64,000 nucleotides of DNA, from assembly GCF_036507355.1 (NCBI RefSeq), contig NZ_AP027877.1, one strand, 5' to 3'. Positions 24,467-25,728 of the stretch are shown piece by piece. The first letter of the stretch is position 1; every line of letters begins with the position of its first letter. This stretch comes from Escherichia coli (GTDB lineage Bacteria > Pseudomonadota > Gammaproteobacteria > Enterobacterales > Enterobacteriaceae). Made by a program: the position numbers and the translations under genes. The notes beneath the pieces are model-generated. The model searched no databases. It was given only the letters and a program-made list of their open reading frames with translations, and had not been told where the DNA came from.

Positions 24467-24535
24467 GCTACGGCTGATGGCGCCAATTATTCATTGCCAC
24501 GTCATCTGTAAGCGATTATTCATAACGCAGACAAC

Positions 24536-24751
24536 TTAGTTAGAGGTAATTATCTTATCAACCTCTGCAAGAGATAAAGCTGTCACCTCTGCAACGTCTT
24601 CCCGAGACATCCCTTTACTCAGAAGACGCTGGGCCAGTCTTACCTTCTGGAGTCCCTCTTTATATCCCTTCTGAAATCCCTTCTGAAATCCCTTCTCTTC
24701 AAACCACTGCGCCAACGTCTGCCTGGTTTCTCTCCGTGTCTTTATTTCCAT
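24536..24751 (-). CDS. Small protein (71 aa) paralogous to the C-terminal tail of Rpn-family nuclease YadD
   Basis: ORF track MEIKTRRETRQTLAQWFEEKGFQKGFQKG...LLSKGMSREDVAEV...; about 60 percent identical to YadD residues 241-302; own ATG with AAGGGA Shine-Dalgarno 5 nt upstream; 9-bp tandem repeat ccttctgaaat. Confidence 0.5.
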   Translation of the reverse strand: MEIKTRRETRQTLAQWFEEKGFQKGFQKGYKEGLQKVRLAQRLLSKGMSREDVAEVTALSLAEVDKIITSN

Positions 24752-24819
24752 ATGTTCCCTTAATTATCTGGTCAGTTAACAATAACAATTATCTGGCTAA
24801 AACTGATAATGCAGATAAC

Positions 24820-25728
24820 TTAGTTAATCAGCCTATCAATCTCAGCAAGAGGTAAATTTGCCATCTCTGCAACGTCTTCCCGAGGCATTCCTTTACTTAG
24901 AAGACGCAGGGCGAATTCCTGACTTACTTCCTGTCTTCCCTGCTGAATCCCCTTCTCAATTCCTTTCTCAATCCCTTTCTCTTCAAACCACTGCGCCAGC
25001 GTCATCATAGACTTCCCTCCCGTTTCCCTGTCTCTCAGCACACCATAAAACAAATCCGCTTGTTCAGTATGACCGCGTTGCAGCATATAGTTTTGCATGG
25101 CAACTAACTGACTTCCGCTAGTGTACCCTTCGTCAATCAGCGTGACCAGTTGCTCCAGCAATAACATTAAGTCGCGCTGGCGAATATGTTTTTGCAGTAG
25201 TTCGAGAATCGCAATCCGCCGATGTTGCATGATTTCGTCATCCGGTGTGATGGTGATATCCACCAGCGGGAAAGGACTGTTATAGACGCGTCGCGCCAGC
25301 TCCGGAGAGTAAAACATATCAAACCAGCACATTGAGAGCGGATAAGGTGTGGCCTCGCCCTGATAAAAGAGAATCGGCACTACCAGCGGTAGTTTGTCGT
25401 GATCCGCCTCCAGATGCCGATGCATGGCGGCTATAGAATAACGCATCATGCGAAAGGCCATTTTCTTATCCGGCTTGCTTTGGTGTTCAATCACAACATG
25501 CAGATAACCGGGATTGCCCTGCATTTGCACGGAATAGAGCACGTCCGTGCTGTGTCCTTTTAGGCTCTCTTCAATGAAACTCCCCGACTCTAAATGAAGC
25601 GTGTTGAGGTCACAAAGTTCGCGTAATTCCACTGGCAAATGTATCTCCAGAAAGTCGCGAGCCGTCTCCGCATGCATTAAAAATTGTTTAAATACCGCGT
25701 CATGCGGTGTAGTACTCGGTGCATCCAT
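24820..25728 (-). CDS. yadD: Rpn-family recombination-promoting nuclease (PD-(D/E)XK, YhgA-like)
   Basis: ORF track 302 aa, MDAPSTTPHDAVFKQFLMHAETARDFLEIHLP...; repeat-containing tail EKGIEKGIEKG; also named rpnC. Confidence 0.85.
   Translation of the reverse strand: MDAPSTTPHDAVFKQFLMHAETARDFLEIHLPVELRELCDLNTLHLESGSFIEESLKGHSTDVLYSVQMQGNPGYLHVVIEHQSKPDKKMAFRMMRYSIAAMHRHLEADHDKLPLVVPILFYQGEATPYPLSMCWFDMFYSPELARRVYNSPFPLVDITITPDDEIMQHRRIAILELLQKHIRQRDLMLLLEQLVTLIDEGYTSGSQLVAMQNYMLQRGHTEQADLFYGVLRDRETGGKSMMTLAQWFEEKGIEKGIEKGIQQGRQEVSQEFALRLLSKGMPREDVAEMANLPLAEIDRLIN

Follow-up and report, generated by a model that had tools for sequence, protein, structure and literature searches.

A published rpnC-rpnCSs arrangement in Escherichia coli: a free-standing copy of the RpnC tail whose repeat length rarely matches that of its neighbour

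rpnC (yadD) and its internal start

The window, i.e. the whole 64,000-nucleotide stretch of Escherichia coli DNA analysed here, carries on its minus strand an intact rpnC gene (yadD; 24820..25728, 302 aa), which encodes the full-length nuclease RpnC-L and lies exactly where a preliminary description, made from the sequence alone, had placed yadD. That description had also called the product an Rpn/YhgA-like nuclease, rightly so: residues 7-207 match Pfam PF04754 (Transposase_31, PD-(D/E)XK YhgA-like; E 3e-87), the protein scores 292 bits against the NCBIfam Rpn family TIGR01784 (cut-off 52), and all E. coli matches of the window gene carry the annotation rpnC. By membership of this family RpnC is a putative toxic antiphage DNase. 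A search of PADLOC-DB 2.0, which has no Rpn model, returned weak tail matches only.

Within rpnC, residues 241-242 are a Met-Met pair encoded by ATGATG at 25003-25008, as had been noticed from the sequence, and from this pair runs an intragenic RpnC-S frame of 62 aa (MMTLAQWFEEKG...; 24820..25008, minus). Upstream of the internal start, GGGAGGGAAG (25012..25021, minus) was read from the sequence as Shine-Dalgarno-like; by analogy with the rpnA site that was mutated by Zhong et al. (2023, PNAS; PMC10400941), it would work as the ribosome-binding site for this start. In K-12 the internal start of rpnC has been demonstrated using ribosome profiling together with SPA tagging (PMC10400941), and by the same kind of analogy RpnC-S is presumably expressed in the window strain as well. 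The account of RpnL and RpnS proteins in the preliminary description proved accurate when compared with that publication. The tail also contains the hypervariable 4-aa repeat helix (IEKG IEKG IQQG RQEV SQEF; 24913..24972, minus), located by sequence comparison, and across strains the variable segment, taken from WFEEK to RLLSKGM, is between 11 and 39 residues long. At the level of sequence, the RpnC tail in the window thus combines 4-aa repeats that vary among strains with an internal start that is in frame and has a ribosome-binding site upstream of it.

The rpnCSs gene

Downstream of rpnC on the same strand is an ATG-started ORF of 71 aa (24536..24751, minus) with an AAGGGA Shine-Dalgarno sequence (24756..24761, minus) 4 nt before its start codon, the latter being kept in 34/34 matched loci; both had been correctly described beforehand. 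In BLASTP the product shares 38/67 identities (57%, E 4e-22) with RpnC residues 235-301, in good agreement with the figure of about 60% first put forward for residues 241-302. The E value and the conservation across Escherichia together rule out the reading that this is a chance ORF. It is almost certainly rpnCSs, the duplicated RpnS-domain gene which Zhong et al. reported downstream of rpnC (PMC10400941, Fig. 2I and text), and whose name is used here.

The locus is thus the rpnC + rpnCSs arrangement published by those authors; it is real, was previously known, and has small value as a discovery. As in the window, the published gene order is panC-rpnCSs-rpnC-panD with the same orientation, and the published gene, like the one found here, originated as a duplication of the RpnC tail and varies in its 4-aa repeats, being lost in some cases via deletion or fusion (PMC10400941). 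What differs in the window is that a long ERIC separates rpnCSs from panC. Prior annotation, an eventuality for which the preliminary description had allowed, does exist: RefSeq labels the gene 'RpnC/YadD family protein', 'hypothetical protein' or pseudo 'transposase', and the explanation given in PMC10400941 is duplication from rpnC. A literature search for 'rpnCSs' and for its RefSeq accessions found nothing besides the paper of Zhong et al. The RpnCSs protein of the window is 93-94% identical to common E. coli alleles and has a private C-terminus (EVDKIITSN, as against EIDKLINSN in those alleles).

Comparison of alleles locates the 4-aa repeat region of rpnCSs (FQKG FQKG YKEG LQKV) at 24641..24688 (minus). 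Among alleles the variable segment covers 9-27 residues, mostly in 4-aa steps, and the whole protein 57-77 aa, the length differences being mainly of 4 aa and in frame. Separately encoded RpnS proteins in some species are annotated DUF4351 (PF14261) (PMC10400941), and there are also small stand-alone HTH_Rpn_C (PF27070) proteins. The 71-aa ORF itself has no Pfam-A match at E <= 0.001, either to DUF4351 or to any other family, while close RpnCSs homologues carry weak precomputed matches to PF27070. As the Pfam scan gave no match, assignment was made via TIGR01784 (C-terminal positions 213-273; E 7e-11, under the family cut-off), via the PF27070 matches of the homologues and via the direct homology to RpnC.

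Spacers, hairpin and ERIC repeat

The 68-nt spacer between rpnC and rpnCSs (24752..24819, minus) is almost invariant among the sampled E. coli loci; its first ~14 nt repeat the sequence that flanks the tail on the 3' side, and CCAGATAATT is present twice. A consensus-signal scan of the minus strand found no terminator-like or promoter-like site between or after the two genes, and on manual inspection the GATAAT motifs of the spacer had no acceptable -35 element. Given a spacer that, by consensus search alone, is free of either kind of signal, it seems likely that rpnCSs is co-transcribed with rpnC or with an internal rpnCS transcript.

Between the convergent genes there is a GC-rich hairpin (TGGCGC...GCGCCA; 24463..24485), which is followed by a T-rich run on the panC (plus) strand only. 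It was considered as a terminator for rpnCSs and found unconvincing, there being no U-run on the rpnCSs strand and a z score on RNA folding of -1.9. The same hairpin occurs in the rpnC-panC spacer of K-12, which is only 73 bp long, in line with the short spacer given in the preliminary description. That description had further proposed an ERIC element between panC and the small ORF, and one is indeed there: a long-form ERIC repeat (24262..24461), inserted between panC and the hairpin, and recognised by a primer match and by inverted arms of 26 nt at its two ends (24262-24287 and 24436-24461). What we take to be the ERIC2 primer sequence is matched exactly at 24397-24418, where 0 matches would be expected by chance. 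This 199-nt unit recurs at other places in E. coli with 96% identity (H127), and the median number of places per E. coli genome is 5, in unannotated DNA.

Distribution

Distribution was counted across 5,426 complete genomes of E. coli. The rpnCSs junction is present in 1,555 of these (~29%), while ~70%, and K-12 in particular, are without the gene. It had been suggested that the additional DNA between panC and yadD may be strain-specific; this is right only in part. It does not apply to the tail gene, given the number of its carriers, and the ERIC-bearing spacer is present in 408 genomes; what is unusual is the pairing of ERIC with rpnCSs, seen in 0 of the 5,426 genomes (best coverage 82%) but present in further assemblies. 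The exact RpnCSs protein of the window and its 277-bp spacer are found in other public assemblies (the protein in 25 blocks), although species-representative genomes gave no match to an exact 51-mer and the protein had no entry in an exact cluster look-up. Homologues of rpnCSs exist in E. marmotae and other Escherichia. Carriers of the gene include Nissle 1917 and ST131.

Origin by tandem duplication

The relationship between the two tail copies can be seen in the DNA as well as in the proteins. In a local alignment of 204 columns, 24522..24719 (minus) and 24806-25003 are 76% identical, the match extending ~14 nt past each stop codon, so the diverged DNA copy reported earlier is a real one. 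Both proteins share the WFEEKG and RLLSKGM...EDVAE blocks on either side of the variable helix, and the intragenic RpnCS and RpnCSs represent the same domain (WFEEKG motif, repeat helix, HTH-like bundle) at the 57% identity given above. Judged by sequence comparison, rpnCSs arose when the final ~200 bp of rpnC, together with ~14 nt of 3' flank, were duplicated in tandem. Afterwards, on the same evidence, the Met-Met start disappeared from the copy, and a new ATG, preceded by an AAGGGA, was acquired nine codons farther upstream. It is this new ATG and its own ribosome-binding site that turn the copy into a gene in its own right, of 71 aa, lying 68 nt beyond the end of rpnC.

Sequence has probably also passed between tail copies. 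Mosaic alleles occur in both genes (L004, L026 and L030), and some C-terminal segments of RpnCSs reach 98% identity with RpnC tails from other genomes. An ERIC-bearing panC spacer is found with a single rpnC in 408 of the 5,426 complete genomes, and in the one of these that was looked at, strain 2013C-3264, rpnC resembles at its 3' end the rpnCSs of the window more closely than the rpnC tail of the window (97% vs 70% over the last 30 columns). Together with the report that rpnSs can disappear when its region becomes fused to the N-terminal domain (PMC10400941), such observations argue for rpnCSs being mainly an alternative-tail cassette, recombination or gene conversion with which swaps or fuses tails, and exchange of this sort would change RpnCL and RpnCS jointly, in repeat number as well as in specificity. 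Although the proposal is compatible with the explanation preferred here, there seems little chance that it accounts for the gene: the conserved ATG and Shine-Dalgarno sequence are not required for such a role, and, as fusion removes the cassette, the switch could work once only. Under the preferred explanation, a duplicated and since decoupled gene, rpnCSs would probably also offer homology for recombination events in which tails are reshuffled or deleted.

Is rpnCSs a functional gene?

A free-standing tail copy might instead be a decaying and functionless remnant of the duplication, either young or kept rpnC-like by gene conversion. The dN/dS ratio of the conserved parts, ~0.56 for RpnCSs and thus above the 0.26 of the RpnC tail, is compatible, as far as sequences go, with relaxed constraint; the gene is missing from ~70% of E. 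coli genomes, is often flagged partial or pseudo by PGAP, and in one sampled genome is broken by an IS3 insertion, while ypaA, its counterpart in K-12, is annotated as a pseudogene. Moreover, slippage by 12 nt is in frame by construction, so that in-frame indels are a weak sign of selection. However, frame-keeping indels of 6 nt are also found in rpnCSs, outside the 12-nt repeats, and start codon, Shine-Dalgarno sequence and reading frame, the last of which the preliminary description had singled out for comparison across strains, are intact in the sampled loci wherever the ORF was recovered, E. marmotae and 6 PGAP-partial loci included, save only for the one with the IS3 insertion. Loss of the internal Met was followed by the evolution of the new start and ribosome-binding site, and rpnCSs stays intact even in those relatives whose rpnC has a premature stop. 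Finally, the analogous YpaA/RpnESs is made in K-12, where its synthesis was detected using an SPA tag (PMC10400941). On this evidence a mere remnant is improbable, and there is good reason to think that the product of rpnCSs is a functional protein.

Predicted fold

An AF2 model of RpnCSs is all-helical (H6-19, H22-45, H50-57 and H61-70), with a mean pLDDT of 70.7 and values of 79-89 across residues 31-70. The known RpnS fold is a three-helix bundle that dimerises via its long first helix (PDB 7TH0), but a Foldseek search of the PDB with the model gave 0 matches at E <= 0.001, 7TH0 lying outside the top 50, and this RpnAS structure was likewise not found from RpnCSs by sequence or profile searches of the PDB. 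Those searches returned only one designed protein, 'CAP REPEAT', in which the HTH-like motif is also present, and weak matches to the HTH of DNA invertases. The local similarities found by Foldseek are to HTH DNA-binding domains, and although none is significant they agree with the remark on HTH similarity by HHpred in PMC10400941. When translated, RpnCSs would be expected to form a small helical protein in which a long repeat helix is followed by an HTH-like bundle, and by analogy with RpnAS it may dimerise through the repeat helix.

Repeat length and the antitoxin question

The Rpn system is notable for encoding toxin and antitoxin in shared DNA, which obliges the two to co-evolve. In rpnC itself, where RpnS and RpnL come from one stretch of DNA, repeat numbers would be forced to be equal, and this has a functional counterpart: RpnCS blocks RpnCL only at equal repeat number (PMC10400941, Fig. 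4D), one extra KGIE repeat in either partner abolishing neutralisation (PMC10400941), a rule that was derived from a single pair of constructs (plus or minus one KGIE) and that may not extend to helices of differing sequence. RpnCS, by sharing its DNA with RpnCL, always has matching repeats, whereas those of the separate rpnCSs vary independently. Helix lengths in the comparison of the two genes were measured between sequence anchors, not from structure.

In the window the variable helix has 21 residues in RpnCSs and 23 in RpnC, so that the two lengths are unequal. Across 23 distinct (RpnC tail, RpnCSs) allele pairs, which are not phylogenetically independent, the lengths are uncorrelated (Spearman rho -0.05, p 0.83); they differ in 22 pairs, that of the window among them, and are equal in just 1, random pairing being expected to give 0.86. 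One and the same RpnCSs allele (21 residues) is paired with RpnC lengths of 23, 27, 31 and 35, and an RpnC length of 31 with RpnCSs lengths from 9 to 27.

These figures bear directly on the proposal, raised in the preliminary description, that the tail gene provides an extra antitoxin. As a second cognate antitoxin, RpnCSs would bind its neighbour RpnCL at the C-terminal helix and raise the ratio of antitoxin to toxin. It is homologous to a proven antitoxin domain, RpnCS, and shares with it the conserved WFEEKG and RLLSKGM...EDVAE blocks; its gene follows directly after rpnC in the same orientation, the signal scan having shown no terminator between the two; and in one lineage (L011/L012) the lengths are in fact equal, at 27/27. 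Nonetheless, lengths that differ in 22/23 pairs and do not track one another, a mismatch in the window of 2 residues with repeats of FQKG as against IEKG type, and the published finding that a mismatch of one repeat abolishes the action of RpnCS on RpnCL (PMC10400941) all weigh against it, as does the fact that the RpnCS made from inside rpnC is already a perfectly matched antitoxin. A cognate role is thus doubtful, although it should be stressed that length mismatch lowers only this claim and not the identity of RpnCSs as an RpnS-type protein.

The best overall explanation, to which we would assign a probability of roughly 0.8, is that the locus is the published rpnC with rpnCSs, the latter having arisen by tandem duplication of the rpnC tail and, in the mechanism favoured here, having since become decoupled from the nuclease. 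As to the protein itself, the failure of lengths to track one another, taken with the published equal-repeat rule, favours a decoupled paralogue, and that RpnCSs is decoupled from RpnCL and is no strict antitoxin of it we would put, from sequences, at about even odds. Once free-standing, rpnCSs would have escaped the coupling, its helix length and repeat sequence being able to drift independently of RpnC. In most strains, the window strain (21 vs 23; FQKG-type vs IEKG-type) among them, RpnCSs would then probably be no tight cognate antitoxin; self-association appears the likelier behaviour, with perhaps a weak or conditional modulation of RpnC.

A broader reading, offered tentatively and with the odds against it, is that the RpnSs genes (rpnCSs and ypaA of K-12) form a separate specificity class and are not antitoxins to their neighbours, and that they could also be donor cassettes that recode, by recombination, the repeats of RpnL and RpnS. 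Its signature would be the mismatch in 22/23 pairs together with that of K-12 ypaA. RpnSs proteins could in this case pair with themselves and have another target, for instance an Rpn nuclease other than their own or a factor of phage origin, or they could regulate conditionally. In ~29% of complete E. coli genomes there is a tail copy freed from the coupling and usually mismatched to its neighbour. Whether or not RpnCSs neutralises RpnC bears on the specificity of the repeat code, and such copies might give an antiphage nuclease a further level of regulation or of diversification.

Comparison with ypaA

A close parallel is ypaA/rpnESs of K-12, which, like rpnCSs, duplicates the tail of the adjacent rpn gene as a stand-alone ORF in the same orientation, has a Shine-Dalgarno sequence of its own, and arose by an independent duplication, in this case from RpnE (phylogeny in PMC10400941). 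The two differ in that ypaA, flagged as a pseudogene in RefSeq, has kept the ancestral internal Met as its start (MTIAERL...), that of rpnCSs being new and further upstream, and in their spacers, which are of 12 nt for ypaA and 68 nt for rpnCSs. K-12 YpaA and the RpnE tail are one 4-aa repeat (KLEG) apart, a mismatch of the same kind as that seen in the window.

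Two copies of the RpnC tail

On the minus strand of the window lie rpnC (yadD; 24820..25728, a 302-aa ORF) and the ATG-initiated 71-aa ORF known as rpnCSs (24536..24751), both placed as in the preliminary description. Also borne out by reading the sequence are the small ORF's own ATG and AAGGGA Shine-Dalgarno (4 nt from there to the ATG) and the internal ATGATG of rpnC at 25003-25008 (Met241-Met242, with GGGAGGGAAG just upstream). The tail similarity, put earlier at about 60%, comes out at 38/67 identities (57%) with RpnC residues 235-301 (BLASTP, E 4e-22), and the claim of a diverged DNA copy holds, with 76% identity over 204 alignment columns between 24522-24719 and 24806-25003. 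Because alignment of the two tail copies continues for about 14 nt past each stop codon, rpnCSs stems from a partial gene duplication in tandem that took in the 3' end of rpnC together with its flank.

RpnC itself contains the YhgA-like domain PF04754 at full length (E 3e-87) and scores above the cut-off of the NCBIfam Rpn family model. In the profile comparison of the 71-aa ORF, which had been proposed as a check, RpnCSs matches the C-terminal 60 positions alone of the Rpn model (E 7e-11), falls under its whole-protein cut-off, and has zero matches in the one Pfam release searched; close homologues carry a weak precomputed match to PF27070 ('HTH_Rpn_C'). An AlphaFold model (built with 25 homologues; mean pLDDT 70.7, or 79-89 in the C-terminal half) is all-helical, with helices predicted at residues 6-19, 22-45, 50-57 and 61-70. 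Searched against the PDB with Foldseek, it gave no significant match, and only local likeness to HTH DNA-binding domains; the RpnAS crystal structure (7TH0) was not recovered with RpnCSs in sequence or profile searches. What places RpnCSs in the RpnS-type group is its direct homology with the RpnC tail. The original reading, a free-standing RpnS-type paralogue, was right.

Distribution and annotation

The arrangement of rpnC followed by rpnCSs is already known, being both published and widespread. Zhong et al. 2023 (PMC10400941) reported that all five K-12 rpn genes have an internal start giving a small RpnS protein, that RpnS neutralises the toxic full-length RpnL, that RpnES has a second copy in ypaA (rpnESs), whose product was detected by SPA tagging, and that RpnC is the source of RpnCSs; in the literature after that paper, no publication on RpnCSs was found. 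The preliminary description had allowed that the arrangement might already be annotated or explained elsewhere, and it is, in RefSeq as well as in PMC10400941.

A 141-nt probe covering the start of rpnCSs, the intervening spacer and the stop of rpnC found its target in 1,555 of 5,426 complete E. coli genomes, on the chromosome in every case and once per match, carriers including Nissle 1917, strain 83972 and ST131; homologues of RpnCSs occur also in E. marmotae and other Escherichia. Against the same kind of genomes, the best 10-kb identity of the window is 97.5-97.7%. Annotation of rpnCSs is inconsistent across RefSeq, the labels being 'RpnC/YadD family protein', 'hypothetical protein', and partial or pseudo 'transposase'. 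At six sampled comparison loci (L004, L029, L031, L036, L037 and L038), an intact ORF with conserved ATG, Shine-Dalgarno and stop is flagged by PGAP as 'incomplete; missing N-terminus' and named a pseudo 'transposase' or 'hypothetical protein'. This mislabelling probably arises because a full-length Rpn ranks as the best protein evidence.

Coding status and transcription

Lack of frame conservation across strains had been named as counting against a real gene; rpnCSs is intact, with ATG and Shine-Dalgarno conserved, wherever it was recovered in the sampled loci (the six PGAP-partial cases included); at one further locus it is broken by an IS3 element. Its alleles encode 57-77 aa, with in-frame length steps that are mostly of 4 aa. 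Pairwise dN/dS is about 0.56 in the non-repeat parts, against 0.26 in the corresponding portions of the RpnC tail, which suggests that constraint is present but relaxed, or else mixed with diversifying change. That rpnCSs is a decaying remnant, a reading to be set beside both the raised ratio and the intact frames, we consider unlikely.

The 68-nt spacer between the two genes (24752-24819, coding strand minus) shows only 1-4 differences among matched E. coli loci, the Shine-Dalgarno and two CCAGATAATT direct repeats included, and is better conserved than the coding DNA on either side. A scan of its coding strand found no consensus promoter or terminator, from which we infer that rpnCSs would be transcribed by read-through originating in rpnC or at the internal promoter reported for rpnCS (PMC10400941). 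Downstream, a GC-rich hairpin (TGGCGC...GCGCCA, 24463-24485), common to the K-12 spacer, has a T-run on the panC strand only and probably terminates panC, so that rpnC and rpnCSs are left with no obvious intrinsic terminator.

Repeat length and the antitoxin proposal

According to PMC10400941, the RpnAS dimer forms via a long helix bearing strain-variable 4-aa repeats, an equal repeat number is required for RpnCS (the tail protein from the internal start) to block full-length RpnCL, and the overlapping RpnS/RpnL design amounts to 'obligatory coevolution'; the repeat variation extends to RpnSs proteins, the free-standing class. The overlap forces a shared repeat number; a separate gene is under no such compulsion. 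At each locus, helix length was taken for RpnC and RpnCSs alike as the count of residues separating two conserved anchors, WFEE(K/R) and R-x-L-x-KGM, a measure that is anchor-based rather than structural.

Among 23 distinct allele pairs, RpnC spans 11-39 residues and RpnCSs 9-27; lengths are equal in just one pair (27/27), where random pairing would give 0.86, and are uncorrelated (Spearman rho -0.05, p 0.83, for pairs that are not phylogenetically independent). In the window the values are 23 for RpnC (units IEKG/IQQG) and 21 for RpnCSs (FQKG/YKEG). At the K-12 rpnE-ypaA locus (NC_000913.3 2356904-2358001), the experimentally detected free-standing copy YpaA is likewise off-register from its neighbour, with one extra 4-aa repeat (KLEG) over the RpnE tail, which ends 12 nt before it; in RefSeq, ypaA is listed as a pseudogene and RpnE is labelled 'inactive'.

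Given the published equal-repeat rule (which derives from one construct pair), most RpnCSs should pair poorly with the adjacent RpnCL. The proposal that the tail gene supplies an extra antitoxin is thus less likely in its strict form: a cognate second antitoxin would suit the established RpnS/RpnL neutralisation, the length mismatch counts against it, and we regard it as doubtful. We favour the reading that RpnCSs is a translated paralogue decoupled from RpnCL, which may self-pair, may modulate RpnC weakly or conditionally, and may undergo recombination with the tail of rpnC. Of these results, the systematic RpnC/RpnCSs length mismatch is the single lead of use, and it is open to the assays established for RpnC.

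Exchange between the copies

Mosaic alleles occur in both genes: RQEV-type repeats or a C-terminus of RpnC type turn up in some RpnCSs (L004, L026, L030, L011), and some RpnC genes have the RpnCSs-type ending KLINSN (L006). The C-terminal segments of certain RpnCSs reach 98% identity with the RpnC tail of another genome. In strain 2013C-3264, a carrier of the ERIC with a single rpnC, the last 30 columns (rpnC 3' end plus flank) are 97% identical to the window rpnCSs and 70% to the window rpnC tail; this pattern fits the fusion route among the two published routes of rpnSs loss, namely deletion, or fusion with an rpn N-terminal domain (PMC10400941). The exchanges suggest that the second tail copy acts as a recombination partner. 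That it is a pure tail cassette and nothing else is improbable in our estimation, and this possibility overlaps with the favoured decoupled paralogue.

In L042 and L045, loci near-identical to the window, a 3-nt deletion plus substitutions in rpnC introduces a TGA shortly before the internal start (alignment columns ~690-700, window ~25030-25040), cutting the nuclease to about 234 aa and leaving the RpnCS frame (called as a 62-aa ORF) and rpnCSs intact: a natural separation of toxin body from tail.

The panC side and neighbouring genes

Between the panC stop (24258) and rpnCSs lies an ERIC of about 200 nt (24262-24461) with 26-nt inverted arms and an exact match to the ERIC2 primer sequence. 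This is a long form, the ERIC consensus being 127 nt; its extra internal segment holds a perfect 10-nt palindrome (24354-24363/24366-24375), and a 199-nt unit of 96% identity (H127) is found elsewhere in E. coli. Per E. coli genome, the median number of places with an ERIC copy is five.

The K-12 rpnC-panC spacer is indeed short, at just 73 bp. An ERIC-bearing panC spacer is present in 408 complete E. coli genomes, each time beside a single rpnC; ERIC and rpnCSs occur together in 0/5,426, with a best coverage of 24259-24819 of 82%. The suggestion that this roughly 0.5 kb is strain-specific holds only in part. The exact window RpnCSs with the same 277-bp spacer recurs in other public assemblies and one gut metagenome, so the combination is a lineage trait and not a one-off.

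The neighbouring yadE (26386-27615, minus) has an in-frame stop at 27460-27462, codon 52 of the K-12-type frame (...GNIRAG*), leaving open only a 354-aa GTG-initiated remainder (408-409 aa in other strains), a product found also in the close relatives L043 and L047. The panB-panC segment (22601-24258) is unusually polymorphic: of the 5,440 E. coli records that match it, only 11 reach at least 99% identity to the window and 4,250 stay at 90-95%. The whole panB-panD neighbourhood looks recombination-rich or mosaic.
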